Positions 13,451-53,212 of a DNA stretch of 64,000 nt are shown in pieces. The stretch's first letter is position 1. The number at the start of each line of letters is the position of its first letter. The stretch is from Candidatus Zixiibacteriota bacterium (GTDB lineage: Bacteria; Zixibacteria; MSB-5A5; JAABVY01). The position numbers and the translations under genes were made by a program. The DNA is taken from positions 1 through 64,000 of the forward strand of contig DSEQ01000021.1 in the NCBI GenBank assembly GCA_011056555.1. The letters run 5' to 3'. The notes under the pieces are model-generated. The model was not told the origin of the DNA. It saw nothing but the letters and a program-made list of their open reading frames with translations, and searched no databases.

Positions 13451-13885
13451 TTAGGATGTAAGGCTGACAGCTCCCGTCAGCTTGATAGTCACGTTGAGCT
13501 TGATGGCATCCGCCGGGTCGATGTCCAAGGGCAGATCCATGACGAACCCGGCAAAATCCAGAACCGATGCTTCCGTGTTGGGCAGCACGATCTGATAGTT
13601 GACCGAATCATCTGACAGGAAATCGGTCAGCATCTCGGAATACCCGTCGAGGGTGAAGTTCATCTCCAAGGTCAGCTCTCCACCGTCCCTGAATCCGGCG
13701 ATGAACTCGCGCCACCCCCCCGTAGAATCGAGCGAGGTGACATCGATCAACTCTCTGGTCTGCCCGGGTCCGCCGATACGCGTGATCTCAGCTATGGCCG
13801 TGAAGGTCTCGGAGCTCGCTCCGTCTCCACGTTTGAACTGAGTTCCCACACCTGCTACAGCGTTACTCATAGTAACCTCCTTCAT
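13451..13885 (-). CDS. major tail protein (TP901-1/GTA g9-like)
   Basis: AGVGTQFKRGDGASSETFTAIAEITRIGGPGQTRELIDVTSLDS resembles the TP901-1 family major tail protein consensus. Confidence 0.55.
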   Translation of the reverse strand: MKEVTMSNAVAGVGTQFKRGDGASSETFTAIAEITRIGGPGQTRELIDVTSLDSTGGWREFIAGFRDGGELTLEMNFTLDGYSEMLTDFLSDDSVNYQIVLPNTEASVLDFAGFVMDLPLDIDPADAIKLNVTIKLTGAVSLTS

Positions 13886-14277
13886 GCATTTGTTCTATGC
13901 ATCCTGAAATTGACCGTCAAAAGTGGTCTGTGATTGTCATCATATCCGAGGAACAGGATGTCTCCCTGTGCCCAGATTGCTATGTATCGAGTCGAATTGA
14001 TTGTGTAATTCGCCACGACATGCAGACTGTCCTGGATGTCCTTGGCCAGCGCATATGCATCCCGGTATTTTCCTTTGGCGCCGCGGATTCTGACCTGAAT
14101 GGTGGGCCGCTTGTAAACGAAATTCTCTTCCGGATCCGAGCCTCCGGTGTCATAGATGGCCACACATTCATCCGGACTGGCCGGCATCTCCGAAACAAAC
14201 AGGTTCGTCCTGAATACCAGTCCCAGACTGGAATCAGCACCCAGAATGTCTTTTATGTCATGGCTTGGTGCGTTCAT
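13882..14277 (-). CDS. tail terminator / completion protein (DUF3168-like)
   Basis: 131 aa; position upstream of the major tail protein. Confidence 0.35.
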   Translation of the reverse strand: MNAPSHDIKDILGADSSLGLVFRTNLFVSEMPASPDECVAIYDTGGSDPEENFVYKRPTIQVRIRGAKGKYRDAYALAKDIQDSLHVVANYTINSTRYIAIWAQGDILFLGYDDNHRPLLTVNFRMHRTNA

Positions 14278-14909: not shown

Positions 14910-15259
14910 ACCTTCCTCACATATATGTCTGTCTTCAAATTAGGGACCGACTCCTTCGAGCGAATCTCAAAAGCTGAATCACACACCAGAGGATCGGCCC
15001 GTTCTTCTGCCGTCAAATCGGATAGCTCGCCCAGGAAGAGGTAACCGCCCATATCCAAATCCTGGCCCACATAGACAACCGCCTGCGATCTGACCTCCCT
15101 CCCCTGAGAATCGACAAATATATCCTGGCGCTCCTCCCATCTGCAATCGATCTCGGCTGCTACATCATAGGATCTTCCGCCGAATCCATCAGGTTGCGGA
15201 TTGGCCCAATAAACGGCCGTCTGCTTAAGCAGACTGGTTATCAATTTGGATCTGCTCAT
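14900..15259 (-). CDS. head-tail adaptor / head closure protein
   Basis: 119 aa; position and size. Confidence 0.4.
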   Translation of the reverse strand: MSRSKLITSLLKQTAVYWANPQPDGFGGRSYDVAAEIDCRWEERQDIFVDSQGREVRSQAVVYVGQDLDMGGYLFLGELSDLTAEERADPLVCDSAFEIRSKESVPNLKTDIYVRKVWL

Positions 15260-15618
15260 GTTATGGTCTTCGCCTCCGCCGGGCCCTTGCTTTGACCAAG
15301 CTCTGCCAGGATGCCCTTATACTCGAGCACCTTAACCTGCTGGCCATAGCGCGTAAAATCCAGTCCCATACCGGTCTTGCCCTCATAGGTTGCATCCGCA
15401 TCTCCGAGCTTCTCCCTTGAGGTCTGAGGATCCAGCATGGCCGCAAGGTGAGCGGCAAGCCAGCGTTCGATCTCTGCCAGAAGGTCTGTTCTATATTCGC
15501 CGGTCAGTTTATCGGTCACCACCAGGTTGGCAGCCTGCAGAAATGGAGTGATCTGTGCCTGGGTCAAAGCCGTATCCATGATCTCCAGGACCTCATTTTC
15601 TTGAATTCTAAATGCCAT
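15256..15618 (-). CDS. gp6-like head-tail connector protein
   Basis: N-terminal VLEIMDTALTQAQITPFLQAANLVVTDKLTG resembles Phage_connect_1. Confidence 0.45.
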   Translation of the reverse strand: MAFRIQENEVLEIMDTALTQAQITPFLQAANLVVTDKLTGEYRTDLLAEIERWLAAHLAAMLDPQTSREKLGDADATYEGKTGMGLDFTRYGQQVKVLEYKGILAELGQSKGPAEAKTIT

Positions 15619-15632
15619 AATGGCCTCCGCTG

Positions 15633-16298
15633 TTATTTCTTGACCTCAAATACGCCCCCCTTCCACAGTACCGGCGCCAGAAAGTCCTCCACGTCGGCAA
15701 TATCCCATCTCAGTCCCAGCGCCAGAATAAGATCTTTTAGTTCCGACAGATCACCGGTCATCAGCTTATGCGGCCAGATCGTCCATGTGCTCGCGTTCGC
15801 ACTTACGATCTCCGGGAAACGTCTTTTGTGCCAGTCGACCCATTCCTGCCAGCCATATTTATTCTTATACCCGTTCATATATCCGGTCCTTATGCAAGCC
15901 GAGACGATATCCTGATCCTCACGTCGTACTATGATCCAGCGCGCGCGAGGAAATGCCTGAGTCCAGATCGGCCAGATAAGGCAGCTGAGCGGGCTGGCAT
16001 AATATATCTGGCCCTCTTTACCCGCTACGGTTCGCTCTATATTTCTTCTCCAGGGCAGGGCGACAATTTTAGATACTTTCAGACATTGGCTGATTGAAGG
16101 CAATGGATTCTGCCCGCTACAATCCGCCCGCAGGCCCCTCAATATGGGTTTGACCATGGTTTCCCTGATTTCATCGCGGTCGGAGACGGCATTATGCGCT
16201 CCGCAGAGCTGCAGGACATCCCCGATCAGGGAGATTCCGGAGCGTGCCGCCCCGGTTATGAGAATCAGTTCATGCATTTTTCCGTTTATCTTTCTCAA
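15633..16298 (-). CDS. sulfotransferase (Stf0-like)
   Basis: PAPS 5'-PSB-like ILITGAARSGISL and 3'-PB-like IIVRREDQDIVSA motifs; alternative start at 16277. Confidence 0.5.
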   Translation of the reverse strand: MRKINGKMHELILITGAARSGISLIGDVLQLCGAHNAVSDRDEIRETMVKPILRGLRADCSGQNPLPSISQCLKVSKIVALPWRRNIERTVAGKEGQIYYASPLSCLIWPIWTQAFPRARWIIVRREDQDIVSACIRTGYMNGYKNKYGWQEWVDWHKRRFPEIVSANASTWTIWPHKLMTGDLSELKDLILALGLRWDIADVEDFLAPVLWKGGVFEVKK

Positions 16299-16992
16299 AC
16301 AGGCCCCGGTTTCGCCTCAATTTCTGCATATACACATTCCGCGGAATGACTTCTGTCAATTTCTCATGCTTCTGGTGATACACCAACAGCTCATCCGATA
16401 CCAGGATCTTGAGACCGGCTTTGGTTACCCTATCCAGGAAGGAATTGTCGTCGTACCCGATTCCTTCCGCGTAGCGCTCATCAAAGCCGCCGATCTTCCT
16501 GTAGTTCTCACGGCTCAACGCTGTACAGAAGTGATAGCGCACATCGCGATGTTTGGTGTGCTGATACCACATGTGCACCTGCGGTTTCAGATCGTCGAAG
16601 GTCTTCAGCCGAACAGCTGTATCGGCCAGGCTCAAACAGGCGCATACCACATAATCTGCCCGACTCAACAATTTGTCCATTCCGCCCAGTATATCCGACT
16701 TGTGGAAGCATTCCGGGTTGGTGATCACCAGATATTTACCCCGGGCCCTGGCGGCTCCGGCATTAAAGAGCCGTGAGGGATTATATTCCCCCTGAGCTCC
16801 TGCCTTGATAGCCAAAATATTCATTTCCGGGAATTCTGAAATGGTACCCTGCAGGTCGTCCTCGCTCTTAATATCTTCAATCAGTATTACCTCATAGTCA
16901 TTTCGGTCTTCATAGTGGTAATCAAACGATAGCAGCGTATTGTAGAGTTGAATTGCTCGATTGTGATAGGGCATTATGATGCTGTATTTCAT
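16270..16992 (-). CDS. family 2 glycosyltransferase
   Basis: Start set at MKYSIIMPYHN (ATGA overlap with upstream gene); IIMPYHN...EVILIEDIKSEDD GT-A fold motifs. Confidence 0.55.
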   Translation of the reverse strand: MKYSIIMPYHNRAIQLYNTLLSFDYHYEDRNDYEVILIEDIKSEDDLQGTISEFPEMNILAIKAGAQGEYNPSRLFNAGAARARGKYLVITNPECFHKSDILGGMDKLLSRADYVVCACLSLADTAVRLKTFDDLKPQVHMWYQHTKHRDVRYHFCTALSRENYRKIGGFDERYAEGIGYDDNSFLDRVTKAGLKILVSDELLVYHQKHEKLTEVIPRNVYMQKLRRNRGLFEKDKRKNA

Positions 16993-17834
16993 GAAATCCT
17001 CCTGAGCACATCGATCATTAAATCGGTGATATTGGACCTTATCTCTTTTATATTTTTCTCTGTTATCATGTCCTGCCAGTGACCGAAAGCAGGACAGCCA
17101 CCAAACCAATGCACTCCGATCGTATGCGGCAGGATGAGAATGTCATTTTGGCCATAGAGCAGACCGGCCCTTCCCGGAGGGACCGGATAGACCGAATGAA
17201 AGGGAATATTTGATATCACGCAGTCCTCAACTTCACGCTTTCCCGGCCAATAGAATCTATCCAGCACCCTGCGGCCGGCGCTCTGATAATCCGCGGGATC
17301 GAAATGAGAGAGTGCCAGTTTGAAGACATCGGAAAAGAAGCTCCAGCCGTCTTCAATTGCTGAGAAGAGAAAGCCGATGCTGTGGTAGCGCTCGCGCCGA
17401 GGGGTGGTATGGCAGCAGACCCCCACATCGGCACCTGGACGGACATACAGGGCCGTCATCGGCCGAATATATAGGATATCGAAGTCTGACCATATCCCGC
17501 CTTCTTTGCCGAGAATATACCAGCGCAGGAAATCTGACTTGAATACTTCCGCGATTTTATCATCGACACCGATCTCAGTGAAATTGAATTGCCTGATTGA
17601 AATCCGGGGCAGCTGTACCAGGTCCGGGAAATAGTCCCTTATTTCACGTGACCTCGAGAACTTATGCTCTTTGGTTGTCCAGGTGATTGCAGATGATGAT
17701 TTTTCCGGATAATGTACGATCACATCATAATCCGGGTTAAAATGGACAAACGACCGCACCGTCAGGTAGCGCATGAAAGTCAAGGGCACATTCTTTCCCC
17801 AGTAGAGGTGCAATATTTTTGGAATCTTATGCAT
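16989..17834 (-). CDS. glycosyltransferase, DXD sugar-binding type (Gly_transf_sug-like)
   Basis: IPKILHLYWGKN N-terminal motif; DFDI. Confidence 0.45.
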   Translation of the reverse strand: MHKIPKILHLYWGKNVPLTFMRYLTVRSFVHFNPDYDVIVHYPEKSSSAITWTTKEHKFSRSREIRDYFPDLVQLPRISIRQFNFTEIGVDDKIAEVFKSDFLRWYILGKEGGIWSDFDILYIRPMTALYVRPGADVGVCCHTTPRRERYHSIGFLFSAIEDGWSFFSDVFKLALSHFDPADYQSAGRRVLDRFYWPGKREVEDCVISNIPFHSVYPVPPGRAGLLYGQNDILILPHTIGVHWFGGCPAFGHWQDMITEKNIKEIRSNITDLMIDVLRRIS

Positions 17835-19405
17835 TATCTTGTTCCGATCTGTTTTATGTCCCTAACTCTGGCGACCTGGGCGCCATTCCACAGATTGTCA
17901 TCAGTTGCTTTGCCCTTCTCGAAACTTCGCGTCTTGCTCTTCGAGATAACCCGGCCGCCGGCCAGATCAACCAGGCGCTCGAAATGCTCGGGTGTCCTTT
18001 GCACAGTGCCCATTCTCTGTCTCTCCAGTGTTTCGTCGTATTCCCGATTGCCATTGGGCGGGGAGGCGTATTGAATGGCCAGGGGAGCGTTATCCTTCAG
18101 GCTTCGCAACACATTCTGCATGAGCACGATTAGATCAATATCGCTGGCATGCTGAGCCACCAGGTTACATATGGCCAGGTCATACTGCCTGCTCGGTAGC
18201 TGGCGGGGGTCCGTGAAGCCTCTATCTATGTAATCCAGACAATTCTCAATGGCATTCCGGGATATATCCAGGCCGTCGACTATTATGTCCCGAGCATTCA
18301 GCTCCTTCGAGCACCGCCCGGTACCCAGGCCTATATTGAGAATCCGCATTCCCGGCCTCAGGAAATCTGCAAAGCCCAGGAAATTCGCCACATTGCTAAT
18401 GCTGCTGCCGGTCAAAAACCTGATCTCATGCTTCTGGTGGTTATTCTCCCAGAATGACTTTATGCCATCCCTATAGGCCGCCTGCCAGCTGCTGTCAATA
18501 TGATCACCCCGCCGCCATCCTGCGGCCTTCACTTGATAATAATTCCACCAGAAATCGCATCTCAGACAAAGGCTCGAGGGCCTTCTCCAGAGCTTTTTGA
18601 AATTGGCCTCGATCGTCTCCCAGTCATCTTTGAGGATATTGGCGAAATTGGTCTCGCCCCGGATCACGTCGTAGGCGCAGAAGCAGCAATCCCCGTTCGG
18701 TTTTATCTGCATGGCGCCCTTGTAGCCGTCGCAAGTCCAGGAGTGATACATAATCGAGCGGTCAATTACTCCGGTGATGATTTTGCCGCCCCATTTGATC
18801 TCGGCATCCTTGGCCCATTCCACGCGATAGCCGGCAAAAGCTTTCCTGACCGAGGCTTCATCAGCGCCGGTCACCTCATTGCAACCGATCTCAACCTTAA
18901 ATCCAGGCTTATTTTTATCACGATATCGTATGAATTCGATGGCATTTTTATAGCAGCGCTCCCACTTCAATCCGGTCAACCGTTCAAACTCGCTGCCCAC
19001 ATTGGGGAAGGAGAGTGTAATATTCGAGCATGCCTGAAATATTTTATCGAAGACCTCCGGCCGCAGCAGGCTCGCATTCGTGTTAAGTCCGAGATAATTC
19101 GTCATGACTCCAATCTGACGCCCATACTCGATCTTGTTAAACAGATCCCGATCGGCCAGGGGCTCACCGAAGCAGAACATGGCCCCGATCTTCAGGCCGC
19201 GCTCCTTGACCTTATGGGCAATTTCAACAAAGTCTGCCGGCCGCAAGAATTTTATCGGGCGCTCCATGCGCTCATACAGACAGAACTTGCAACGGGCATT
19301 GCAAAAGTTGGTCGTCTCCACATAGACAAGACTGGGATAAGGACGGCCGTCCCAATGGTGCCTCATCATCTCCGTGCTTTCTTTTAGAATCGGGATCTTA
19401 GCCAT
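17834..19405 (-). CDS. radical SAM / SPASM-like domain fused to class I SAM methyltransferase
   Basis: CNARCKFC (CxxxCxxC); later Cys cluster CDGY...CCFCAY...CLRCDFW; C-terminal ILNIGLGTGRCS methyltransferase motif I. Confidence 0.6.
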   Translation of the reverse strand: MAKIPILKESTEMMRHHWDGRPYPSLVYVETTNFCNARCKFCLYERMERPIKFLRPADFVEIAHKVKERGLKIGAMFCFGEPLADRDLFNKIEYGRQIGVMTNYLGLNTNASLLRPEVFDKIFQACSNITLSFPNVGSEFERLTGLKWERCYKNAIEFIRYRDKNKPGFKVEIGCNEVTGADEASVRKAFAGYRVEWAKDAEIKWGGKIITGVIDRSIMYHSWTCDGYKGAMQIKPNGDCCFCAYDVIRGETNFANILKDDWETIEANFKKLWRRPSSLCLRCDFWWNYYQVKAAGWRRGDHIDSSWQAAYRDGIKSFWENNHQKHEIRFLTGSSISNVANFLGFADFLRPGMRILNIGLGTGRCSKELNARDIIVDGLDISRNAIENCLDYIDRGFTDPRQLPSRQYDLAICNLVAQHASDIDLIVLMQNVLRSLKDNAPLAIQYASPPNGNREYDETLERQRMGTVQRTPEHFERLVDLAGGRVISKSKTRSFEKGKATDDNLWNGAQVARVRDIKQIGTR

Positions 19406-20487
19406 TCATACGCTTCCTTTATTCTGTTCGGGTCCTTGGATGTGAGAGCCGAATTGATTATCTCCTCAAATTTCGGGCTCAAAATGTCATAGGAATAATG
19501 CAGCAGCTTCAGATAAGCTCCAATATGTCTGCTCCCGATTTCAGCTATTGGCATAACTCCGGATTTATCGAAGAGTAATTCTGAGCCTTGAAAGAAATTG
19601 ATGGTCCCGGGATCGATATCTATATATCCCAGCAGGGACAAATATATTTGATGGAGGCAGTGCCTTTTGAACAGCCGCTCCTGATTTTCTTTATATTTGA
19701 ATGGTTTTGCTGAACATCTTTTTTCATACCAGCCGTCCTCTCCAAAGGCGACCAGGCCGTTGCTCACGGGCGAGCTGGCAGCTATAGAGATGTCGACCTG
19801 GTTGTTATCGACATAGTCATCGTGCTTAAATCTTTTAAATATCAATCCGTTTTCTCGGAGACCCAGGCGGCCAGCTTCCCTCCGCTTCCAGAGAATAAGA
19901 TATCTCTCCGGAGTATATCTGGTGGTGGAATGTATGCCCAAAAGGTCAAAATGAGATTTCATGCGGAGTATGAATGAATCATAATTCCGGAGATATTTGT
20001 CCGGCTGAGCCTGGAGGTCGGGGCACTGGATGTTTATGGGGCCCTCGGTCAGCACCAGGTCGCTTGAGAGGGCGGCCAATTTATTAATCCAGGCATTGCT
20101 CCCGATTTCCCTGTATAGATGATGCGGTCCGTTGCCTATAAATATTCTGTCGAAGCTGATAGAGTCATGAAAATCTCGGAAACTCACATTTTTGAAGTCA
20201 TAATTGCCGGGGTAGCACCGGGCCACCTTGCTGCATAAATCGATCGCCAGCCAGTCTGAATCTATCCCGGTTATCTGTTCGAAGTCCTTTCTGTGGGCGA
20301 AACAAAAGTATCCTTTTGAGCAACCGATATCCAGGAACCTCTTACCCTTGAAAAAGGCGGGGAAATGTCTGCCCATTATACCTGTGCGTTCCGCCAACAC
20401 CTCCGTGGCCCTGGGCTCCGGCTCGAGGCTGTAGGTATGAGTGGGCGGATAGCTCCGGTTTATATGTTCCTGCAGATCCAGCGTCAT
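19384..20487 (-). CDS. class I SAM-dependent methyltransferase-like protein
   Basis: FLDIGCSKGYF motif I. Confidence 0.4.
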   Translation of the reverse strand: MTLDLQEHINRSYPPTHTYSLEPEPRATEVLAERTGIMGRHFPAFFKGKRFLDIGCSKGYFCFAHRKDFEQITGIDSDWLAIDLCSKVARCYPGNYDFKNVSFRDFHDSISFDRIFIGNGPHHLYREIGSNAWINKLAALSSDLVLTEGPINIQCPDLQAQPDKYLRNYDSFILRMKSHFDLLGIHSTTRYTPERYLILWKRREAGRLGLRENGLIFKRFKHDDYVDNNQVDISIAASSPVSNGLVAFGEDGWYEKRCSAKPFKYKENQERLFKRHCLHQIYLSLLGYIDIDPGTINFFQGSELLFDKSGVMPIAEIGSRHIGAYLKLLHYSYDILSPKFEEIINSALTSKDPNRIKEAYEWLRSRF

Positions 20488-21578
20488 TATAAAAAATTCC
20501 CATGCATAATTTTTGATGACTCAATCAGTTTATTCATGTTCCTGTTTTTGTCGTTGAACTGACAGCGAGGACATTCCCTGGCATCAAAGGCCTCCAGGTA
20601 GTCCTTTCTTTTTTCGCCCCACCACAATTCACTGAAGCTCTGATCCTTTAAGGAGCCGATCAAGCCCCGCCGGGTATAAGCCAGTACACAGCAGCAGTAT
20701 AGATTGAGGTCGGCACCTATGTACGGCACAAAATGCTGATGCGGACAGCGACTGTATTCAGGATGTCCCTGCACTAATTCGCCCATGCGATCCGAGAAAT
20801 TATTGATTACCTTGAATTCGCCAGTAGAAAGCCACTCGGCTTCTTTGCACAGGGCTGCAGCCTGGTAATGAAAGCCCACAAAATAAGCCGCATTCTCGGG
20901 CTGGAATACAGCGGACAGGCGTATATTATCGACGCCCAAAGATCTGGCCAGCTTCACTCCCGGGATGATTTCCTGCCAGTTGTCTTTATTGACGACATAG
21001 CCTATGCCGATTGTCAGATCTGAACCGCTTTTATCCCGCGCATCGACCAGGGCGCGGATATTTTCCAGGACCTCATGAAATGCCCTTTCGGGAGCTCTTC
21101 TCATTTGATGATATGATTCCGGAGAAGCGCAATCGAGCGAGATTCGGATCCAGGTGGAACCCAGGATTGCAGACCTTATCTCCTTATTCAATTTCCACCC
21201 ATTAGTGACCAAAGCGGTATCCAATTTAAGCTGATGAGCTCTGTTAATGAATTCAGCGCAATCCGGGTGAAGTGTCGGCTCTCCGCCTCCGGTAAATTGT
21301 ACTGCTTTGACTCCTGCGCTTTTCAATTCTTCCAGGATCCTGATCACCGTATCATAATTAATCATTCGATTGGGATTTCGAACGAGTTTGCCGCTGCCGT
21401 TGCGAATAGCAAAGAACTCGGTATATCCATCTATTCTATAAGCGCAAAAAGAACAATTCTGATTGCAGAGATCCGATATAATCAGGTGCGTGTGAATCGG
21501 GGCTGGCAATTTGCCATCCCGCAGTTCCAATAATCTGTCCATATGCAGAAGGGCTTTGTTGTACGAATAAGGATTCAA
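20487..21578 (-). CDS. radical SAM protein with SPASM-like C-terminal Cys cluster
   Basis: CNQNCSFCAY (CxxxCxxC); C-terminal CCCVLAY...CPRCQF. Confidence 0.6.
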   Translation of the reverse strand: MNPYSYNKALLHMDRLLELRDGKLPAPIHTHLIISDLCNQNCSFCAYRIDGYTEFFAIRNGSGKLVRNPNRMINYDTVIRILEELKSAGVKAVQFTGGGEPTLHPDCAEFINRAHQLKLDTALVTNGWKLNKEIRSAILGSTWIRISLDCASPESYHQMRRAPERAFHEVLENIRALVDARDKSGSDLTIGIGYVVNKDNWQEIIPGVKLARSLGVDNIRLSAVFQPENAAYFVGFHYQAAALCKEAEWLSTGEFKVINNFSDRMGELVQGHPEYSRCPHQHFVPYIGADLNLYCCCVLAYTRRGLIGSLKDQSFSELWWGEKRKDYLEAFDARECPRCQFNDKNRNMNKLIESSKIMHGNFL

Positions 21579-22270
21579 GTTCTGGCTCCTTTCATCCAGG
21601 CAGGAACAGGCTTTATTTCATGAGGGCGAGGTCTTCCGTGAAAACAGACAATCCTGCAATCATGCGGCAGCCTGCCGGCTTTTAGAACATGGACTTTGTA
21701 GCTGCAAATGCCGGAAAAAATATCCTGCGCCATTATGATCTCGGGATCCCCTCTGTTTTTCAACAGGTCGCGCAGCCATTCCTGGTCGCCCCTGAAACTG
21801 CGTCTCTTATTGTTCAGAAAAAGCGCCCTCGGGGTATGCTTGAAGTGGCCGTCTGAAGCGAATTCCCTGAAGGTTTCATAAATCCAGAGCAATGAGCCAT
21901 TCCAACCCATGATTCCGGAGCATATATCCTTGCGATAAAAGCCCCGCAGCATCATCAGGGCATTATGTGACTCACTTATCCAGGAGCCCAGAGGATTAAT
22001 GTCTCCGACTATCACGGTATCAAGGTCGAGGTATAGGGCCGGTCCCATCAGTGCAAACATCTCTATTTTTGACCACCATCCCGGCCAATCATAATGGAGG
22101 GGAACGATCTCATCCAGAACAAGACGACGAAGTTTATATGGATCTTCATCAGTCAGGCAGACGAATTTATGCGGGAGAGTCAAATGCTTCATAACGCCCA
22201 GCGCCAGCCTGCGGACATATTCGATGCTGTAATCACCACCGGTTCTATACACGCACACCACCTTGATCAT
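21575..22270 (-). CDS. nucleotide-sugar transferase-like protein (GT8-like DxD)
   Basis: LYLDLDTVIVGDI resembles the GT8 DxD region; weak. Confidence 0.3.
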   Translation of the reverse strand: MIKVVCVYRTGGDYSIEYVRRLALGVMKHLTLPHKFVCLTDEDPYKLRRLVLDEIVPLHYDWPGWWSKIEMFALMGPALYLDLDTVIVGDINPLGSWISESHNALMMLRGFYRKDICSGIMGWNGSLLWIYETFREFASDGHFKHTPRALFLNNKRRSFRGDQEWLRDLLKNRGDPEIIMAQDIFSGICSYKVHVLKAGRLPHDCRIVCFHGRPRPHEIKPVPAWMKGART

Positions 22271-22890
22271 ATGAGATCCTCCAAAGCCACCTTGGGAAAG
22301 ACATCGAGCGCGCTGTCAAGACAGGCATTGAAGCACTCAATGTTTTTCTGTTTAAGAGAATGGGCGATATCCGGAAATGGTCTCAAAAACCTCGGATATG
22401 GATTCTTCCCTTTCGGGTTTGCAGGAGGATCATAATCATCATGATAATTATATCTGCCCTCCACCACTCTCATATCGAAGCCCAGAAGGATTATCCGCTT
22501 CACTCCGAAATGATAGGCCAGGCCGATAGCGCAGGCTCCCGAGCTGAGATTCCAGGCCAGAATTGAGGGGGAGGTTGATAGTCCCCGAATCTTATTCTGC
22601 CTTTTGACCACCTTGATGCCGGGCTTATCCAGATGCTGTTCGCAGGTGGTGACCTTCAGGCCGGCAAAGCTCAGGAGCTGCTTGGCGTGCATGTTGTACC
22701 ATCGGCAGTCTCCAAAAAAAAGGCAGTCGATCCAGTCGGCCATCCGGTAGGCGTTATTAACGGCAATGATCCGTTTGCCACGCAACCGTTTGATATCGAA
22801 ACCGCGCAGGCTGGGACCGCCTCCTATGATAAAGCATTCCCCCTCCGGCCAGAGCCTGGGGACTGTCCAGTAACCCGAAGGGCCCTTCAT
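22267..22890 (-). CDS. DUF115 / Maf-like (MptE-like) protein
   Basis: FIIGGGPSL motif characteristic of the DUF115 family associated with flagellin glycosylation. Confidence 0.45.
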   Translation of the reverse strand: MKGPSGYWTVPRLWPEGECFIIGGGPSLRGFDIKRLRGKRIIAVNNAYRMADWIDCLFFGDCRWYNMHAKQLLSFAGLKVTTCEQHLDKPGIKVVKRQNKIRGLSTSPSILAWNLSSGACAIGLAYHFGVKRIILLGFDMRVVEGRYNYHDDYDPPANPKGKNPYPRFLRPFPDIAHSLKQKNIECFNACLDSALDVFPKVALEDLI

Positions 22891-23022
22891 TGCTGCCTCC
22901 TGTTTCGCCTTCTGGAATCGCGTGCCATCCCGTTTTTGATCTTGCGCTTTCTTTTCAATCTGTCCAGGAGACGCTGATTTTCCTCGTCCAGGTACTGGGA
23001 CCAGCGCCGGGAATTCGCCGCC

Positions 23023-23481
23023 TTAGCCACGCTTTTTTCCGCCCTTCTTCTTGGATGATTTGGATTTATCATTCGTCGCCGGTTCTTTTTCCGGCTCAGC
23101 CTCTGGTTCCGGTTCCACCTCAGTTTCGGTCACGGGCTCCGGCTCGTTTTCGGGCGGGGGAGTTTCCGCAAACGGGTCCTCAATCTTCTCGCCTGTCAAA
23201 TCTTCCGCTTCCGCCTTGCTGAGAGGCTGGTCATTTATTTTTTGACCACTGCCCTGATTGACCACATCATAAAGATCATCCTCCCGGCGCCAGGCTTTGA
23301 GCTTATAGTCAGGCTCAGGAGGAGGCGGTTCGGGATCGAGTCTTTCGAATTTGAACATCAGCCCCCGGCCTATCTCATAAGGCTCACATTCGATTTGATC
23401 CCCTGGCCGCACAACTGTCCATGCACCCTTCAGGCGCATCCTGTGCGTTCCTGTCTTTGGCTTCATTCTAAATAATGCCAT
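23023..23481 (-). CDS. hypothetical protein with acidic Pro/Glu repeat and basic tail
   Basis: 152 aa; EPEPVTETEVEPEPEAEPEKEP then KSKSSKKKGGKKRG. Confidence 0.3.
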   Translation of the reverse strand: MALFRMKPKTGTHRMRLKGAWTVVRPGDQIECEPYEIGRGLMFKFERLDPEPPPPEPDYKLKAWRREDDLYDVVNQGSGQKINDQPLSKAEAEDLTGEKIEDPFAETPPPENEPEPVTETEVEPEPEAEPEKEPATNDKSKSSKKKGGKKRG

Positions 23482-23536
23482 TCATTGCCTCGATTCTATT
23501 TTTGGGTTTAAAGGGTGTGGTTACCCTGTGGTTAAA

Positions 23537-24544
23537 TTAAGCTGATAAGAGAACGATGCCGCTGTTGCCATCCTTGTCTGACCGGATCTGCGGAACCATG
23601 ATGGCCATCACCTTGAAGTGAGTGATCATGCCGCCTTCGGTTTCCCACTCGACGGTTGTGGGCTGAAGCCCGATGACCATACGGACAGTCTCCGGAGTCA
23701 TCTCGACCATAACGACCTTATCGTCAGTCAGGTAATCGGCAACCCTTACATCGAGGATGCCATTGACCTGCTTGATACGGTCGCGGATGGTGACGTTGGG
23801 ATAGCTGGTGGAATAATCGTTGTCGAGCGCCGTCTCGTAGTTCGTGGGCACATAGAGCATCCAGGGCCCATAGTGCTTGGCATCGATAGAAGCCTGTTTC
23901 ATGGCCCGGACGTCGTCAAGGATATCTGAACCGGAAGTTCCGCTGGCATCCCACTCATCCTCGAGAGTCACGCTATTACTGCTGAAATCCGTGTATCCAT
24001 ATATAGTGCCGCCCCCGAAGGTATAAGAGCTGGCGCCAGTGAAGAGGATCTCCTCGATCTTTTCGGAGACCTTGGTGGCTGCCATGGCCGCGGTCGCCGT
24101 ATCCAGCGGCATGCCCAGCTTGCGCGAGGCTTCCAGGGCCCGGATCGAGATCTGGAAGTCCTTGTGCACAATCGGCAAAGGCAGATAGCCGATGTCATAG
24201 GTTATGCGGTCGCCCGCTCCCCTGGTGGCCGCATCCATGTTCATCTGGGCCTCGGAGATGTCGGATTCCTTCTCATACTCGAGAACGGTTGTACCCAGAC
24301 CGTTGCCCAGGTTATAGACCAGGCCCCGGCCGATCAGGTCCTGCACGCCGACCAAGCGCTGGCGCGAAATCTTTATTACCGTTTCGTCCAGCTCTTTCCA
24401 TTCGTCCTTGCGCAGGGTGTCGTTGGTCCGGAGGGCATTGGCTTTCATGCCGGTGGCCAGAAGCCGCTGGGCTACGTTTCCATAGACCTTTCCGCCCGGT
24501 AATATCCCGTCAAGCCGCGCCGGAGATATGATTGATTTTCCCAT
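23537..24544 (-). CDS. major capsid protein (lambda E-like)
   Basis: 335 aa; position after the gpD-like gene in lambda order C-Nu3-D-E. Confidence 0.55.
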   Translation of the reverse strand: MGKSIISPARLDGILPGGKVYGNVAQRLLATGMKANALRTNDTLRKDEWKELDETVIKISRQRLVGVQDLIGRGLVYNLGNGLGTTVLEYEKESDISEAQMNMDAATRGAGDRITYDIGYLPLPIVHKDFQISIRALEASRKLGMPLDTATAAMAATKVSEKIEEILFTGASSYTFGGGTIYGYTDFSSNSVTLEDEWDASGTSGSDILDDVRAMKQASIDAKHYGPWMLYVPTNYETALDNDYSTSYPNVTIRDRIKQVNGILDVRVADYLTDDKVVMVEMTPETVRMVIGLQPTTVEWETEGGMITHFKVMAIMVPQIRSDKDGNSGIVLLSA

Positions 24545-24608: not shown

Positions 24609-25067
24609 CTATATCACCAGAATGCGGATACGCTGACTGGAAGGATCAGCTCCGGACGAGCCGGACATGTCAAGCGCCTCGAGGGCAATGCCGACTACCG
24701 ACTGCACGCCGATATCACCCGCCGAAGCGTCGGTGTCCACAACCCGGAGATAACCGTTTCCGTTGGATTCGAGCTTCGAGCCGATCGCAGCGTTCTCTCC
24801 GTCTGCCAGAAGAGCATAGGCCTCTTCGCCGGGTCGGAATATGGCCGCCAGCACCTCATTGCTGGTCGAATAGGCGTCGGATATCTCCTTGCCCTGGTTC
24901 TCATCTTCAAGCGCGAAGATGGTTGCAGCCGATCCCCCCGCGGTTGAATGGGCCTGGAACTTATCAGCTGAAGTCAGCTCGATAAGAAAGCCTGGCGTGA
25001 TTGCCGCGGCTGCAGCCCGTTCAATGCGTACTGGATCGCCTTTGATAGTGATTGTATTGTAACTCAT
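24609..25067 (-). CDS. head decoration protein-like (gpD/DUF2190-like)
   Basis: 152 aa, Ala/Gly/Ser-rich; located between scaffold/protease and major capsid genes. Confidence 0.4.
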   Translation of the reverse strand: MSYNTITIKGDPVRIERAAAAAITPGFLIELTSADKFQAHSTAGGSAATIFALEDENQGKEISDAYSTSNEVLAAIFRPGEEAYALLADGENAAIGSKLESNGNGYLRVVDTDASAGDIGVQSVVGIALEALDMSGSSGADPSSQRIRILVI

Positions 25068-27059: not shown

Positions 27060-28022
27060 TTATTTCCTGGTCTTGCCTGCATCTACCGGCGCATGGGCAC
27101 AAACACAGTTGGGATGCGCCGGCAGCTGTCCCATGGCCTGGGTAGTGGTATATGGGCCGCCCGCCTCCAGATCGACGCAGATCGGGCAGGGATTCGGGCC
27201 TAAAACGACATCAAGCATCACTGGCTCCCCGAGCTCCTGCTCGGCCTGGATATATTCGGCCATCTGAGCCTCATGGTGCGCGTTCAAAACTTCGGTCCTG
27301 GCGATGGTGCGGGCCCGGACCTTGCCGATTTTGTCAACCCGATCGGCGGTGTTCTTATATAGCTCCCTGGCGATCGTTAAAGGACTTTTGCCCTCCGCTA
27401 AACCTCTGGCCAGACCAGTAGTCAGACCGTCGGAGATCCGCCGCCGGATTTCGGCATTCATGAATTGAGTGACAGACTTCAGATCCTCGTAAGTGCGGGA
27501 ATATATGACACCGATCCTGTCAGCGTGAAAACGCCTTCCCATCACGGCCTGTATGCCGCCTGGAACCTCATCAAACAGGGACAGCTGGTATCCCGCAGCC
27601 CTGAGACGCGAGCGGCCGTTGCGCAGCCCTCTCTGATACGCGGAATCAATATAAACGTCCGTCCAGGCTTCCTCGATGCCGATATGTACACCAGGTCGCC
27701 TGCTGACATGAAGAATGCCCTGGCGTTCCTGCTCCTCCAACCAGGCCATAAAGGCCTGCACCTTATCGGCGGAACGTTCAAACGCAAATTCCTTATACCT
27801 GGCTGGAGACAGCCTCCTGAGCGCATTCGGCTGGATATCAAAACAGTCTCTATCGACAATCGATATGCGGATATCCCGCTTGAGCTCATTGAGGCGCTTA
27901 TTGATCTCCCGGATGAAGCGCAGCCTGATCATGGTTGTCCGGGAGGGGTCCACCCGGGAGCTGGCATTCAAGCGCAGCCGGCCAGAAGGTGGCCTGTGGC
28001 AGGTATGTATATCGACGCTCAT
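27060..28022 (-). CDS. head morphogenesis protein (Mu F / SPP1 gp7 family)
   Basis: IARTEVLNAHHEAQ and C-terminal Cys-rich CPICVDL...HPNCVCAH; ATGA overlap with the portal gene. Confidence 0.55.
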   Translation of the reverse strand: MSVDIHTCHRPPSGRLRLNASSRVDPSRTTMIRLRFIREINKRLNELKRDIRISIVDRDCFDIQPNALRRLSPARYKEFAFERSADKVQAFMAWLEEQERQGILHVSRRPGVHIGIEEAWTDVYIDSAYQRGLRNGRSRLRAAGYQLSLFDEVPGGIQAVMGRRFHADRIGVIYSRTYEDLKSVTQFMNAEIRRRISDGLTTGLARGLAEGKSPLTIARELYKNTADRVDKIGKVRARTIARTEVLNAHHEAQMAEYIQAEQELGEPVMLDVVLGPNPCPICVDLEAGGPYTTTQAMGQLPAHPNCVCAHAPVDAGKTRK

Positions 28023-29425
28023 ATGTCCTCCACTCCCGTCACTTCGATTTCAGGCTCCAGCTCGGGTTCTGACTCCTGCAGTTCCCTGTCTATGCTCTCC
28101 AGAATCATCTGGATCTGGTCGATTTCCTCTTTGCTGAATCCCATCACTTTCTCATAGAAGATTTCAGGCGGCAGGATTGAGTCCGCGCCGCTTTCCATAT
28201 AATCCTTGACTGCCTTTGATCTCGAGGCACCGACCTCAGCAACCTCCTTGTCGCTCGGTGTCATAAGGTCAGGCCACTCCACCGAATAACCTTCCGAAGG
28301 TTCCGGAAGAATCTGAGCTTTTATGAGTCGATCTATCAAGGGCCTTAGAATCGTTGGCTCGCAATGCTGCTTTCTGCGAGAATCAACAGTGTCCATCCAG
28401 TTCTTCTCATCCTGGGAAGATGCCAGTTCGCCCCGCTCCGAACCCAGCAGTATGCGTTTGGGAATACCGGTGGCGCAGGAGATCAGATCAATTATGATAT
28501 TTGCATGGCCGGTTGGGTCGGCAACCTGCATGGCCAGGTCCTCCACGCTCATGCCACGCAGACGGATATATCTTTTAAGTCCATGCATATATTCCTCAAT
28601 CTCATCCTGCAGGTCCTCGAGGTCCTGCGGACCGATGGTGTGACCTTCGTCGACCTTGAATCCATATCCTGGAAATGCCCCGCGCCAGAACATCTCAGCC
28701 GATCCCCCTACTATAAGCTCCAAATCCTGCAAGCGATTCAGTACGCATCTCAACCTGGGAGTCCCTTCGACATTATCCTCCAGAAGATCCTCGGCCACAT
28801 GTATCACCCGCGAGTGATGAACCTTGACGCTGCGGCTGGAGCTGCCGGTTCCGATCCTGACGTTGATGCTGTATTCTTTGGGCAGTCCGAATCGTTCGCT
28901 GTTCGTATCTGTCTCATAGGCTGAAATCGATGCATTCTGAGACGTGTATGGGGTCAAATATAAGAGCCGCTTGGCTGAGCTGAGCTCCTGATCAAATTCG
29001 AGGCCGTCATCTGCTCCAATCAAGAGGACAGCGTAGGTTCCAATAGAGGCCAGTTTATCCACGCGGATCAGTTTGTGATAGATATGCCGCGATTCTACCA
29101 GCTCCACCCATTTCTTCTCGAACTCGGTTTCCTCTTCATCAGATTCCGTAATTGTGGGCGGCATCCTCCAACAGTGTTCGACCGGCTTATTTATGACCGC
29201 CTTGGCAATGTCCTGCCTGTGATATCGCGCCATGTAGTCATTGAAACTCGGGGATTTGGTGTATCCCAGGGCCGCATAGATATCGCGGTCGTCAGAAAAA
29301 GATTTTCCGAGACGATTGGCGATCGAGGCCCTGACGGCGATGGCCGATAATGCCCGCAGGTAATCATCAGCCTGGTTAGCAGTCAGTTTTTTCTCGGGTG
29401 CGGCTTTCTTCTTTCTTGCCGGCAT
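28019..29425 (-). CDS. portal protein
   Basis: 468 aa between TerL and the Mu-F-like gene. Confidence 0.5.
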   Translation of the reverse strand: MPARKKKAAPEKKLTANQADDYLRALSAIAVRASIANRLGKSFSDDRDIYAALGYTKSPSFNDYMARYHRQDIAKAVINKPVEHCWRMPPTITESDEEETEFEKKWVELVESRHIYHKLIRVDKLASIGTYAVLLIGADDGLEFDQELSSAKRLLYLTPYTSQNASISAYETDTNSERFGLPKEYSINVRIGTGSSSRSVKVHHSRVIHVAEDLLEDNVEGTPRLRCVLNRLQDLELIVGGSAEMFWRGAFPGYGFKVDEGHTIGPQDLEDLQDEIEEYMHGLKRYIRLRGMSVEDLAMQVADPTGHANIIIDLISCATGIPKRILLGSERGELASSQDEKNWMDTVDSRRKQHCEPTILRPLIDRLIKAQILPEPSEGYSVEWPDLMTPSDKEVAEVGASRSKAVKDYMESGADSILPPEIFYEKVMGFSKEEIDQIQMILESIDRELQESEPELEPEIEVTGVEDI

Positions 29426-29804: not shown

Positions 29805-31229
29805 CTACCGGCCCCAGACGCCAGCCTGCTTAATGTTTGTCAATAGGTGAAATGCTCCCGACGATGCATCGGTCTGGTCTGACACACAGCCCTCTGAGCC
29901 GTCAAAGTTCTCGAGTTCATTTAGATAGGCATCATTCCAGCCCGCTCTCACGAGCTTAATATTGCCGGCTTCGGCCTGGGCCGACAATGGCCGGGCCCGG
30001 ATGCCCTTGGCCTCGCGTACCGGATTTAAAACCACGCTGTAGCCGGCCAGAAGCCTGGCGTAGCCGAGAGCCTCTGCCTTACCGGCCTGCCCAGGATCCT
30101 GCTCGATCCCGACCTTGACCTTATGGCCATCCTGGGAAGCTACGTTTTTGATAGTCTCCTCGACTTTCATGGGGCTCCCCTGGAAGCGGCAAATATCGGT
30201 CACGTAGAAAATTCCCCTGCTGTCCCTGCCAATCCTCACGCCCGCGGTCCAGGAAGCCTTTTTCTCCTGGCCTGGCTTGGTCTCGGTCGCAGCTCTGTCC
30301 CAGTAGCGTATTTCCTCCTCCAGGGCGGGGGCCGCATTCACAATTTCAAACCAGGGCCGCTGGAAAAAATTGCCGGCTGTCTCCCGTATGTTCCAGTTGC
30401 CACGGAGCAGACGTTCGCGATCAACCTTCTGAAGGGCCTGCAGGTTGGCTATATATCCGGGATTCCGTTTGAGCAGTATTTTGTTGTCGTAGACTGAAGA
30501 GGGTATAAAGGTGCAGGATTTGGGATCACAATCTGACCCGAATTTCTTTTTAAGCTCCTCGGGACTGTCACCCCAGTGGATCTCATTGCTCACGTTGACC
30601 ATGTAGCGGATTTTACCCGACCGCTTTTCAATGGCGAAGCCCGTATCATCATCGATCCACCAGCGCAGAAACTCCCGCAGCCAGCAGTCCGGGTCCGGAT
30701 TGCAGGTCATGCGCATATAGGGGCTGACACGGCAGGTCGAGCGGTTTCGGCTGAACATATAAGCGATCTGGCTCCAGCTGAAGGACTCAGCCTGGTCAAA
30801 TCCAATCAGCGTTATCTGTGAACCGTCCCAGTTATGTTTATCGTTTTCATGCTGCATGTGGGCAAAGCGGATCTTCGACCTGGCCGGGAAGCGCCAGTCC
30901 AGATAACCTTCTCTGGCCACCCCGCGCCAGTGCGGATACATGCTCAAAGATTCATCCCACAGGCCCCCCTCTGCCCTGATCTGAGTATATTCCCGCCTGA
31001 ATATAACCGCACCATAGTTCGAAACTTCGACCCAGCGGAGCGCTTCATACAAAAGAGCCCAGGTCTTGCCACCGCCGGCAGCCCCACCATAAATGGCTAT
31101 GTCCGCAGGTGTTTTCAAAAACTCTTCCTGCGGTCCCGGCTGTGGGGAATATCGGATGACCTCCCGTTGGTCAGCCATGGCGGCTCCGAGGATCATGAAT
31201 ATGGCAGTCAAAATCAGGCATTTTTTCAT
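29805..31229 (-). CDS. terL: terminase large subunit
   Basis: Walker A GGAAGGGKT; size; ATGA overlap with terS. N-terminal 18 residues are hydrophobic. Confidence 0.7.
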   Translation of the reverse strand: MKKCLILTAIFMILGAAMADQREVIRYSPQPGPQEEFLKTPADIAIYGGAAGGGKTWALLYEALRWVEVSNYGAVIFRREYTQIRAEGGLWDESLSMYPHWRGVAREGYLDWRFPARSKIRFAHMQHENDKHNWDGSQITLIGFDQAESFSWSQIAYMFSRNRSTCRVSPYMRMTCNPDPDCWLREFLRWWIDDDTGFAIEKRSGKIRYMVNVSNEIHWGDSPEELKKKFGSDCDPKSCTFIPSSVYDNKILLKRNPGYIANLQALQKVDRERLLRGNWNIRETAGNFFQRPWFEIVNAAPALEEEIRYWDRAATETKPGQEKKASWTAGVRIGRDSRGIFYVTDICRFQGSPMKVEETIKNVASQDGHKVKVGIEQDPGQAGKAEALGYARLLAGYSVVLNPVREAKGIRARPLSAQAEAGNIKLVRAGWNDAYLNELENFDGSEGCVSDQTDASSGAFHLLTNIKQAGVWGR

Positions 31230-31723
31230 CGTACATCGCTCTCCTCAGGCAGCAGCTCGCGTCCGTTGGGAGGCATATAAGCGTGTATCACGGGGGGATT
31301 TAAAGGGGTTCCGTCCGGTCCAGAATGCTCAAGGGCATGGCGATCATGCCAATCCTGGGACTTACGGTTCTTGAGATAGAAAATGATGGCTGTTACATCC
31401 GGCGCGATCTGCTTCTTGATGCGCTTGGTCCGGGTGCCTGTGATTTCGCCTTCTTTGTTTTTGGTGACAGATTCTTCGACTTCCTCATACCTGTATCCCA
31501 TAGCCCGTTTAAAAAGGGCATTCTCGACTAAGGCATCGGCGTCGGACTTGCCGGTTTTTAATGCTGACCAAAGTGTCCTGTGATCTTTCATGTAGCGCCG
31601 GAAGGTGGTGTAGCCAATGCCGAGGTTCTCGGCGATTTCCTTGTCGGTTAAGCCGCTGCGCTTCCAGGCTCGGATGGTGTCGATACGATCCTTGACGTGA
31701 GATTCCCATTTTCCGTTAGGCAT
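31226..31723 (-). CDS. terS: terminase small subunit
   Basis: HTH LTDKEIAENLGIGYTTFRRYM; position upstream of terL. Confidence 0.5.
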   Translation of the reverse strand: MPNGKWESHVKDRIDTIRAWKRSGLTDKEIAENLGIGYTTFRRYMKDHRTLWSALKTGKSDADALVENALFKRAMGYRYEEVEESVTKNKEGEITGTRTKRIKKQIAPDVTAIIFYLKNRKSQDWHDRHALEHSGPDGTPLNPPVIHAYMPPNGRELLPEESDVR

Positions 31724-37234: not shown

Positions 37235-37357
37235 TTACCTCTTACTTAATTGCTTACACACGCCAATTATGACCAGCATAGGCAGTGCCAGCACCGCATA
37301 AATGCCGGCGATAACGAGCCACACCGCTGCAGCGACGATGCGGACCAGGGTGGTCAT
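37235..37357 (-). CDS. small single-TM protein (40 aa)
   Basis: MTTLVRIVAAAVWLVIAGIYAVLALPMLVIIGVCKQLSKR; ATGA overlap with the Gp37/Gp68 stop. Confidence 0.25.
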   Translation of the reverse strand: MTTLVRIVAAAVWLVIAGIYAVLALPMLVIIGVCKQLSKR

Positions 37358-38106: not shown

Positions 38107-38566
38107 CGCATGACCTTTCTGCCTCGAACTTTAATTCAGCTCCAATTTTCCTGATTTCATGGTCCGGGAATGCGAGCAGGTTGTCATAACCTATTGATAG
38201 AAATGGCCGACCAATATTCAGCTTGTAACGGCCATTTTTATCAGACACAATCAGGTCCGGTTTACTTGGATATATCTTATATTTGTCCGGGAATGCGTCG
38301 CGGCCCATTTCCTTCTTAAGATTGTACATATACCTGGCCTGACAATCTCCGCAATCAAACTGTTCTTTCCTCACCCATCCACTGGCATCTTCAAAAGCCC
38401 AATGTGATGTGACCACGGATTGATAAGCCAGCTTTGTCAAATACGAAAAACTCTTTGGGGTCAGATAGACATCTCGATTCAAGAAACGAACGTGATACCG
38501 AACGCTTTTGCCACTGCCTTTGCCAACATATTTGGGTTTTCCGATGACAAGTAAGACTTCACTCAC
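38078..38566 (-). CDS. hypothetical protein
   Basis: 162 aa. Confidence 0.35.
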   Translation of the reverse strand: MSEVLLVIGKPKYVGKGSGKSVRYHVRFLNRDVYLTPKSFSYLTKLAYQSVVTSHWAFEDASGWVRKEQFDCGDCQARYMYNLKKEMGRDAFPDKYKIYPSKPDLIVSDKNGRYKLNIGRPFLSIGYDNLLAFPDHEIRKIGAELKFEAERSCGGKEQNRMD

Positions 38567-48386: not shown

Positions 48387-48402
48387 ATATTCTCTTTCAA
48401 TC

Positions 48403-48454: not shown

Positions 48455-48538
48455 CGGCATTGTCAAGGGCAAATTCCGTTTTTTTTATGGATTTTCTTAT
48501 TCTATTTGACAACAACAAGTTAATAGGTCAAATATATT

Positions 48539-51508: not shown

Positions 51509-51521
51509 AAGGGGAAATCCC

Positions 51522-53210: not shown

Positions 53211-53212
53211 AT

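Follow-up and report, generated by a model that had tools for sequence, protein, structure and literature searches.

A 64,000-nt stretch of Candidatus Zixiibacteriota bacterium DNA (contig DSEQ01000021.1 of GenBank assembly GCA_011056555.1, a metagenome-assembled genome, MAG), referred to below as the window, is mostly a siphovirus-type prophage. Inside its late gene block lies a cassette of eight consecutive minus-strand open reading frames (ORFs; 15633-22890), located between the gene of the major capsid protein (MCP) and those of the head-tail connector, and each of the eight encodes an enzyme that modifies glycans or proteins. Rather than an isolated insertion, the cassette is this prophage's version of a hypervariable slot that is shared across a clade of phages and probably serves virion modification. 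With moderate confidence, we read it as a set of late-expressed enzymes for the cytoplasmic modification of virion proteins by glycosylation, methylation and sulfation, variable between phages. The glycosylation of phage virions is already known as such, and what is unusual here is the enzymology.

A Conserved Slot with an Exchangeable Interior

The slot is bounded upstream by the MCP gene (23537-24544, minus strand; phrog_771 and phrog_264) and downstream by c120 (15256-15618, minus strand; DUF4054/E217_gp27-like, phrog_37884), the first gene of the connector region. As a preliminary description of this DNA had proposed, eight consecutive minus-strand genes separate the capsid and decoration genes from the connector genes, and both the ORFs and the PHROG matches of the flanks agree with that arrangement. 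The cassette genes are designated I8 to I1 in reading order. NCBI lists two of their products under a candidate division Zixibacteria MAG, both as hypothetical proteins.

A megablast search with positions 15000-23500 gave no match in phage and E. coli collections, and the phage therefore has no close cultured relative. For the MCP, no exact match is on record; its best cultured match, at 34% identity, is with annotated major capsid proteins of Brevundimonas phages (tblastn), which lack the island. MCP relatives at 25-64% identity number 47 in IMG/VR and 31 in MAGs; scanning MAG contigs with the single MCP returned no confirmed relative, and the 31 MAG loci were obtained with an MCP alignment. 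The MAG bins that hold them are mainly those of Zixibacteria, Bacteroidota and Ignavibacteriota (mostly the FCB group), with some labelled archaeal, the binning of phage contigs being unreliable. The MCP family spans phages of bacteria and haloarchaeal tailed viruses, and the Halorubrum phage Hardycor1 protein shares 34% identity across 96% of the query.

The slot counts refer to 51 loci, the window included, in which the interval from the MCP gene to c120 is intact. A cassette occupies the slot in 39 of them: 38 carry a homologue of I8 and 28 a homologue of I1, with both in 27, I8 only in 11, and I1 only in one. In the 12 loci that have neither, the MCP gene leads almost directly into c120. 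The interval measures 7.9 kb in the window and anywhere between 107 bp and 8.9 kb across the loci. The preliminary description had called a pathway of this kind rare in this position, a view contradicted by the presence of a cassette in the same slot in most of the related loci and by the analogues in deposited phages that are presented below.

The edges of the cassette are conserved. I8 is almost always its first enzyme, following a gene of the u152 family, and I1 is the last gene in every locus that carries it, its end falling between -51 and +15 nt relative to the start of c120 (28/28 loci). Between them, glycosyltransferases (GTs), sugar methyltransferases, acetyltransferases, nucleotide-sugar enzymes and radical S-adenosylmethionine (SAM) proteins are exchanged between phages. 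Among 147 non-redundant slot ORFs, a Pfam census counted Sulfotransfer_3 (14 ORFs), MptE-like (13), GT2 (10), radical SAM (4), hexapeptide acetyltransferases (3) and GT11 (2), as well as FkbM/TylF and other methyltransferases, an epimerase, a GDP-mannose dehydratase and a UDP-glucose dehydrogenase. In a closer relative, whose I8 is 67% identical to that of the window, these anchors enclose another cassette, one of 12 genes. At the downstream edge, DUF4054 was found in eight ORFs of relatives, and E217_gp27 is recorded for the c120 equivalent in locus L085.

Coupling, Composition and Mobility

The preliminary description had noted several ATGA overlaps and concluded that the genes are co-translated with the structural genes; the junctions bear out a close coupling to them. 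The stop and start codons overlap as ATGA at u61/I8, I8/I7 and I3/I2 and as TAATG, by 1 nt, at I6/I5 and I4/I3; longer overlaps of 8 and 22 nt occur at I2/I1 and I5/I4, respectively. The I1 stop codon lies 14 nt from the ATG of c120, with a GGAGG inside this gap. For I1 and I2, translation probably begins at internal ATGs (16277 and 16992, respectively) rather than at the upstream TTGs. Consensus matches to promoter- and terminator-like sites in the cassette stayed at the level of shuffled sequence, in a scan not designed for non-sigma-70 promoters.

In base composition, the cassette shows a modest dip, with 49.8% GC overall against 53.5-54.7% in the flanks. The dip is located in the interior genes (47-49%), the anchors I8 and I1 being at 52-53%. 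A mobility signature of the cassette's own did not emerge: flanking repeats are short and at chance level only, and no integrase, transposase or recombinase family was matched in Pfam or PHROG by the eight proteins. None of these proteins has a hydrophobic segment (maximum of the 19-residue Kyte-Doolittle profile, KD19, 1.55), and there is no flippase, polymerase or priming phosphoglycosyltransferase among the eight genes. The cassette is situated inside the late block, some 35 kb from the integrase gene.

The Enzymes of the Cassette

All eight domain assignments made in the preliminary description hold, some of them only at the level of family or fold. The first enzyme, I8 (22267..22890, minus strand; 207 residues), is sialyltransferase/Maf-like (MptE-like, DUF115). 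It matches phrog_4603 at 2.8e-38; among relatives, 13 slot ORFs match PF01973 at E<=1e-3, and many database homologues carry a precomputed hit to this family. The AlphaFold2 (AF2) model of I8 (predicted local distance difference test, pLDDT, 94.2) gave as top Foldseek matches Cst-II, the Maf glycosyltransferase 5mu5 (TM-score on the query, TMq, 0.67), MptE, Cst-I and GT29 sialyltransferases. The motifs GGGPS and SSG...LLGFD are invariant or nearly so in the family and align to GNGPS and TSG...LSGID of Cst-II, which bind the CMP-sugar. The DUF115/Maf-like assignment is thus sustained, below the Pfam cut-off, by phrog_4603 and the sialyltransferase/Maf fold, and this enzyme also bears out the likeness to flagellin-type O-glycosylation that had been put forward. 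I8 is the candidate priming glycosyltransferase of the cassette. No nonulosonic-acid biosynthesis genes lie near it.

Three further genes encode GTs. I7 (21575..22270, minus strand; 231 residues) is a GT-A glycosyltransferase of GT8/glycogenin-like type. It has no Pfam match, and its assignment as GT8-like stands on phrog_1962 ('glycosyltransferase', 1.8e-37) and on a family profile that matches glycogenin-1 at E 1.8e-3, with DLDT aligned with DADT and FHGkprP with HFLGQTKPW (the DxD and HxxGxxKP motifs). PF01501 (GT8) is not matched by the window protein and is matched by 2 of 16 I7 relatives, at E of about 0.01. I7 is often duplicated in relatives. I3 (16989..17834, minus strand; 281 residues) is a DXD glycosyltransferase (Gly_transf_sug, GT32-like) that scores 26.8 bits with PF04488, for a cut-off of 23, and I2 (16270..16992, minus strand; 240 residues from its probable start, ATG 16992) is a family 2 glycosyltransferase with scores all over cut-off for Glyco_tranf_2_2 (40.9 bits), Glycos_transf_2 (32.2) and Glyco_transf_7C (28.6).

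Radical SAM enzymes and methyltransferases occupy the center of the cassette. I6 (20487..21578, minus strand; 363 residues) combines a radical SAM domain (Radical_SAM 74.4 bits, cut-off 29.5; motif CNQNCSFC) with a SPASM/twitch auxiliary-cluster domain (SPASM 22.9 bits, cut-off 21.5), and its nearest solved sequences are the cytosylglucuronate decarboxylase BlsE (8.7e-9), MoaA and DesII. BlsE and DesII are radical SAM enzymes that work on nucleoside or nucleotide sugars. I5 (19384..20487, minus strand; 367 residues) consists of an N-terminal class I SAM methyltransferase, whose residues ~40-130 match several Methyltransf_* families at E 1e-5 to 5e-3, all just under cut-off, and of an uncharacterized C-terminal half. 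In I4 (17834..19405, minus strand; 523 residues), a radical SAM part with a SPASM-like region is fused to a C-terminal class I methyltransferase: Radical_SAM scores 45.8 bits (cut-off 29.5) on residues 29-160, the motif CNARCKFC is present, SPASM scores 17.9 bits, under its cut-off, and residues 345-451 match Methyltransf_23/11/25, the methyltransferase half also matching the Plu4890 methyltransferase (1.2e-5). No NCBIfam subfamily reached its cut-off for I4 or I6. In a related viral contig, the I6 homologue (L044:16762-19068) is a 769-residue ORF that carries a Hint (intein-type) domain close to the N-terminus and is matched by tblastn in two pieces set apart from each other, a pattern that suggests an intein within this cassette enzyme.

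The last gene, I1 (15633..16277, minus strand; 214 residues), encodes a sulfotransferase of the type that uses 3'-phosphoadenosine 5'-phosphosulfate (PAPS; Sulfotransfer_3-like), with the motifs GAARSG (5'-phosphosulfate-binding, 5'-PSB) and VRREDQDIVSAC (3'-phosphate-binding, 3'-PB-like). Residues R12, S13 and G14 are invariant in the family, and R118/R119, D123 and S127 are invariant or nearly so. The sulfotransferase assignment is upheld at the level of the family: all 18 aligned members match PF13469 at E<=1, the best of them at 6.9e-12, and three database homologues carry precomputed hits. The I1 profile matches the tyrosylprotein sulfotransferases TPST1/2 in the PDB at E of about 2e-3. 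The AF2 model (pLDDT 87.8) has the sulfotransferase fold, its 13 best Foldseek matches being all tyrosylprotein sulfotransferases (TPSTs; E 5e-7 to 4e-5, TMq 0.52-0.67), with SgdX2, Stf1 and Stf9 lower down among P-loop kinases. With TPST1/2, I1 thus shares the 5'-PSB (RSG), the 3'-PB (RRxxxDxxxS) and the overall fold; it differs in its length of about 214 residues, against about 300 for the TPST catalytic domain, in an identity of only 13-16%, with an ambiguous alignment near the catalytic Glu ('CGEET'), and in a loop deletion of the window copy. Because its nearest solved relatives are TPSTs, direct sulfation of a protein is possible, and the sulfate acceptor may be a glycan or a protein tyrosine. 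I1 occurs without any phage GT between the MCP gene and c120 in locus L061, and with I8 alone in L017. For the gene that replaces I1 before c120 in I1-negative loci (L014:15329-16129), the only match, to a heptosyltransferase, was insignificant. The literature search on phage-encoded sulfotransferases returned nothing relevant; proteins with a sulfotransferase fold are annotated in other phages and in giant viruses.

Candidate Acceptors

Between the MCP gene and I8 lies u152 (23023-23481, minus strand), which encodes a small conserved protein that has a tail rich in Pro, Glu and Lys and has no Pfam, PHROG or NCBIfam match. According to a family hidden Markov model, a copy of this family directly precedes I8 in nearly all cassette-bearing loci. 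In one relative (L024:3084-5375), a u152-like domain is fused to an MptE-like domain, in an ORF whose start was set mechanically and which may be too long; on sequence, this fusion is a possible 'Rosetta stone' link between u152 and I8. Long ORFs in which an MptE-like domain is joined to other domains, likewise with mechanically set starts and possibly too long, are also present in L003:11578-15249, L067:11308-14328 and L029:4570-6699. u152 is a candidate acceptor or adaptor. The aromatic residue of its 'xYDVVN' motif was tried as a conserved sulfation site and rejected, as it is not consistently Tyr in I1-positive loci. The doubtful 61-residue ORF u61 (22887-23072, minus strand), very basic and extremely rich in Arg and Lys, is read in a different frame from u152 and shares the final 50 nt of that gene. 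No homology was found for it, and it may represent a genuine small gene, an extension of u152 by frameshift, or no gene at all.

The other candidate acceptors are the MCP and the head decoration protein (24609-25067, minus strand; phrog_766 at 5.4e-16). The C-termini of the MCP and of the major tail protein are short and not Ser/Thr-rich, and that of the MCP is conserved in relatives with and without the cassette. An exploratory comparison of alignment columns between cassette-positive and -negative loci, which is confounded by phylogeny and has small negative sets, has provided some leads. MCP Y236 and c120 Y78 are 100% Tyr in I1-positive loci, against 57-60% elsewhere; S16 of the connector protein (13882-14277) is Ser/Thr in 88% of the I8-positive and in 0/8 of the I8-negative relatives; and MCP S201 and S219 are further acceptor-column leads, based on the enrichment of Tyr or of Ser/Thr.

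Comparison with Known Systems

Homologues of I8 are present in 70 deposited phage records, and in several isolated phages they are found next to virion genes. In the D3-like Pseudomonas Detrevirus vB_PeaS_FBPa47 (ON857940.1, L087:7013-7609), the homologue directly follows the MCP gene as a 198-residue, TTG-start ORF with all the conserved motifs. It is annotated as two hypothetical coding sequences, and a methyltransferase-like ORF lies ~1.5 kb further on. Tetraselmis viridis virus S20 (NC_020840.1, L089:4302-9885), of an unrelated lineage, has a cassette of ~5.6 kb between capsid-region genes and head closure, with two sialyltransferase-like genes, GTs and a methyltransferase arranged as in the window. 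In Caulobacter phage CcrColossus (gp126-131), the I8 homologue comes after a tail protein and precedes GTs and a methyltransferase. These three phages thus resemble the window in having I8 homologues, 29-37% identical, next to capsid, neck or tail genes; they differ from it in their capsid lineages, and no sulfotransferase or radical SAM enzyme is annotated in the stretches inspected. Their cassette genes are annotated only as hypothetical or 'sialyltransferase', and the literature search retrieved no functional study of them or of sialyltransferase-like genes in phage structural modules.

To our knowledge, actinobacteriophages are so far the only phages whose own enzymes have been shown to glycosylate the virion. 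[quoted passage not shown] Like those phages, the prophage of the window encodes tandem GTs together with methyltransferases. It differs from them in several respects: its relatives are siphoviruses from MAG bins of Zixibacteria and of other taxa, mainly in the FCB group; its first enzyme is sialyltransferase/Maf-like, its last gene encodes a sulfotransferase, and it has radical SAM enzymes; the cassette has a fixed position between the MCP gene and the first connector gene, with a strong turnover of genes between relatives; and no C-terminal acceptor extension is seen in its MCP.

As to I8, Maf enzymes O-glycosylate flagellin in the cytoplasm (PMC4065374, PMC11339370), where they act as soluble proteins on folded flagellin subunits before export and assembly (PMC4065374), and they can use CMP-Kdo or CMP-Neu5Ac (bioRxiv 10.1101/2020.06.03.131540; PMC11339370). 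I8 resembles them and the GT42 sialyltransferases Cst-I and Cst-II in its fold, its N-terminal GxGPS and its central S-G...G-x-D motif, but differs from Maf in its size, 207 residues against about 600 with flanking domains. In its organization, the cassette resembles the O-antigen and capsule loci of bacteria, because its edges are conserved and its interior is exchangeable; such loci likewise have conserved flanks and a hypervariable interior of lower GC content that encodes GTs, methyl-, acetyl- and sulfotransferases and nucleotide-sugar enzymes. In contrast with them, it has no Wzx, Wzy or ABC transporter and no lipid-carrier priming enzyme, and all its products are soluble and encoded inside a phage late operon. 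It is also distinct from the Gtr-type modules of serotype conversion, as it contains no membrane-embedded protein of the GtrA, GtrB or GtrC type and is not near the attachment site.

Proposed Pathway and Alternatives

In the proposed pathway, the cassette would be read together with the late structural block, and its products would be soluble cytoplasmic enzymes. I8 would put the first sugar on a Ser or Thr of a surface-exposed virion protein, which might be the MCP, the decoration protein or u152. The donor of I8 is a matter of speculation; an ulosonic or nonulosonic acid of the host in CMP-activated form, for instance CMP-Kdo, would be reasonable, given that both CMP-Kdo and CMP-Neu5Ac can serve Maf enzymes. 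With host nucleotide sugars as donors, I7, I3 and I2 would then lengthen the glycan, methyl groups would be added by I5 and by the methyltransferase half of I4, and the radical SAM enzymes I6 and I4 might remodel a nucleotide sugar or the glycan. Finally, I1 would transfer sulfate from PAPS, either to the glycan or to a virion protein itself, on a tyrosine. With the interior exchanged between phages as O-antigen loci are between bacteria, particles with different surface chemistries would result.

Modification of virion proteins by glycan-directed enzymes is favored because of several lines of evidence: the position of the cassette and its tight coupling to structural genes, with no promoter or terminator signal over chance; a conserved slot with I8 and I1 at its edges and a census of slot ORFs dominated by glycan chemistry; the solubility of all eight products, which lack hydrophobic segments; the proximity of I6 to BlsE and DesII; the presence of I8 homologues in the virion modules of unrelated deposited phages; and the lower GC content of the interior genes relative to anchors and flanks. 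A number of observations weigh on the other side. The 51 loci include several near-duplicate contigs. The window copy of I1 scores weakly with PF13469 when taken alone (E 0.16, 12.6 bits, cut-off 27) and has a 12-residue deletion after the P-loop helix. I8 scores 26.4 bits with PF01973, under the Pfam cut-off of 34.6; at 207 residues it corresponds to the catalytic core only of a Maf-type enzyme, aligning solely to the central domain of the 632-residue 5mu5 (TM-score on the target, TMt, 0.25); its fold is shared by the kinase MptE, as found by Foldseek; and the invariant His of its family, H150, is placed by the profile alignment off the His188 region of Cst-II. The cassette contains no gene for CMP-sugar synthesis, the MCP has no Ser/Thr-rich C-terminal extension like those of the mycobacteriophage acceptors, and SPASM radical SAM enzymes act on peptides more often than on sugars. 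Lastly, we infer the modification, its acceptor and its donor, target and chemistry alike.

Some of these points are also compatible with a cassette for the post-translational modification of virion proteins in general. I1 would then be a tyrosylprotein-type sulfotransferase that acts directly on a virion protein, with c120 or the capsid as candidates, the SPASM enzymes would modify virion peptides (by cross-links, epimerization or the like), and the GTs would add short O-linked sugars only. The best sequence and fold matches of I1, to TPST1, TPST2 and a tick TPST, suggest such a role, and so do its constant position next to c120 and its occurrence in L061 and L017 without the GTs of the phage or with I8 alone. 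The SPASM domain is typical of peptide maturases (NCBIfam matches), and glycogenin, the nearest solved relative of I7, glucosylates a protein tyrosine. However, the TPSTs may be the only solved structures near PF13469, at 13-16% identity and with an uncertain alignment of the catalytic Glu, the signal of the Tyr columns of c120 (Y78) and the MCP (Y236) is confounded by phylogeny, the slots of relatives encode mostly enzymes that build or tailor sugars, and I6 is nearer to radical SAM enzymes of sugar nucleotides than to any maturase of ribosomally synthesized and post-translationally modified peptides. This explanation seems rather improbable to us, for I1 as for the cassette as a whole. If it were true, the slot would diversify the particle surface by sulfation and peptide modification besides glycosylation; we know of no description of tyrosine sulfation in a bacteriophage particle.

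The preliminary description had left the target open between virion proteins and a host surface polymer. The former are retained here as the most likely target, and the latter is unlikely. Remodeling of lipopolysaccharide, capsule or S-layer glycan, by lysogenic conversion or late in infection, might prevent superinfection or help release. GTs that alter the O-antigen are common in temperate phages (mentioned in PMC12619734), the element is a prophage with its integrase gene beside a tRNA-Met gene, and polysaccharide loci, too, contain GT2, GT8, GT32 and sulfotransferases. Several features argue against such a function: the cassette encodes no membrane-spanning protein, flippase, polymerase or lipid-carrier priming enzyme; its stop and start codons overlap inside the late structural block, with no sign of a promoter over chance; it is far from the integrase end, where the cargo-like genes are; and across many phages the slot is fixed relative to the capsid and neck genes. 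Hypermodification of DNA with sugars or other groups, as a means to evade restriction, appears very unlikely. Phage GTs can build diverse DNA glycans (Pyle et al., 2024, as cited in PMC12619734), and radical SAM enzymes and methyltransferases take part in some pathways of nucleobase modification. Yet no base hydroxymethylase, DNA-base kinase or similar enzyme was detected among the large proteins of the replication module that were scanned, small ORFs having been covered only in part; the cassette sits at the head-neck junction, outside the DNA-metabolism module; and no DNA substrates are known for sialyltransferase/Maf-like or TPST-like enzymes.

The Surrounding Prophage

The late genes upstream of the cassette, all on the minus strand, follow one another in the order terminase small subunit (TerS, 31226-31723), terminase large subunit (TerL, 29805-31229 for the ORF as listed), portal (28019-29425), head morphogenesis protein, a 639-residue protein, decoration protein, MCP, u152 and u61. 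Downstream of the cassette come c120, c119, Neck1, the head-tail connector, the major tail protein, the tail chaperones and the tape measure. The TerL ORF begins with 19 hydrophobic, signal-peptide-like residues (MKKCLILTAIFMILGAAMA), and homology sets in at residue 25; the actual start probably lies downstream of the listed one.

A tyrosine integrase gene (57050-58171) adjoins a gene for tRNA-Met (CAT; 58197-58272), beyond which lie host genes for glutamate dehydrogenase and a PPDK-like protein. The region 57050-58272 probably represents one end of the prophage together with its attachment site, the other end being outside the window. Between the replication genes and the integrase gene, a plus-strand block of low GC content (43.6%; 47851-57000) encodes an OmpW-like protein (49175-49831), a HerA/mad8-like ATPase (51522-53210), a HATPase_c_3 protein (53213-54781), a protein with weak B12-binding/radical-SAM-like similarity (54781-56196) and a DUF3800 protein (56093-56854). 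This block looks like prophage cargo and is possibly a defense system. Elsewhere, a 1213-residue protein (42083-45724) has a calcineurin-like phosphoesterase domain at its N-terminus and resembles LmuB/SMC weakly; it may be an SbcCD-like nuclease. Its module also encodes a DUF5131 protein (37354-38106) together with a HerA-like ATPase (38563-40374).

Implications

If the proposed modification of virion proteins is correct, a large and environmentally widespread clade of uncultivated siphoviruses would keep a rapidly diversifying cassette for the coating of its particles, with a chemistry that would comprise priming of the ulosonic-acid type, methylation, radical SAM tailoring and sulfation. 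The idea is testable in isolated phages, as the D3-like phage of Pseudomonas, CcrColossus and S20 carry I8 homologues beside capsid, neck or tail genes. The cassettes would also form a reservoir of compact, soluble enzymes that glycosylate and sulfate proteins, which would be of biotechnological interest. For the phages themselves, the diversity of the slot would point to selection on the surface chemistry of the particle, which might act, for example, through stability, adhesion to particles or mucus, or evasion of recognition by hosts or grazers.

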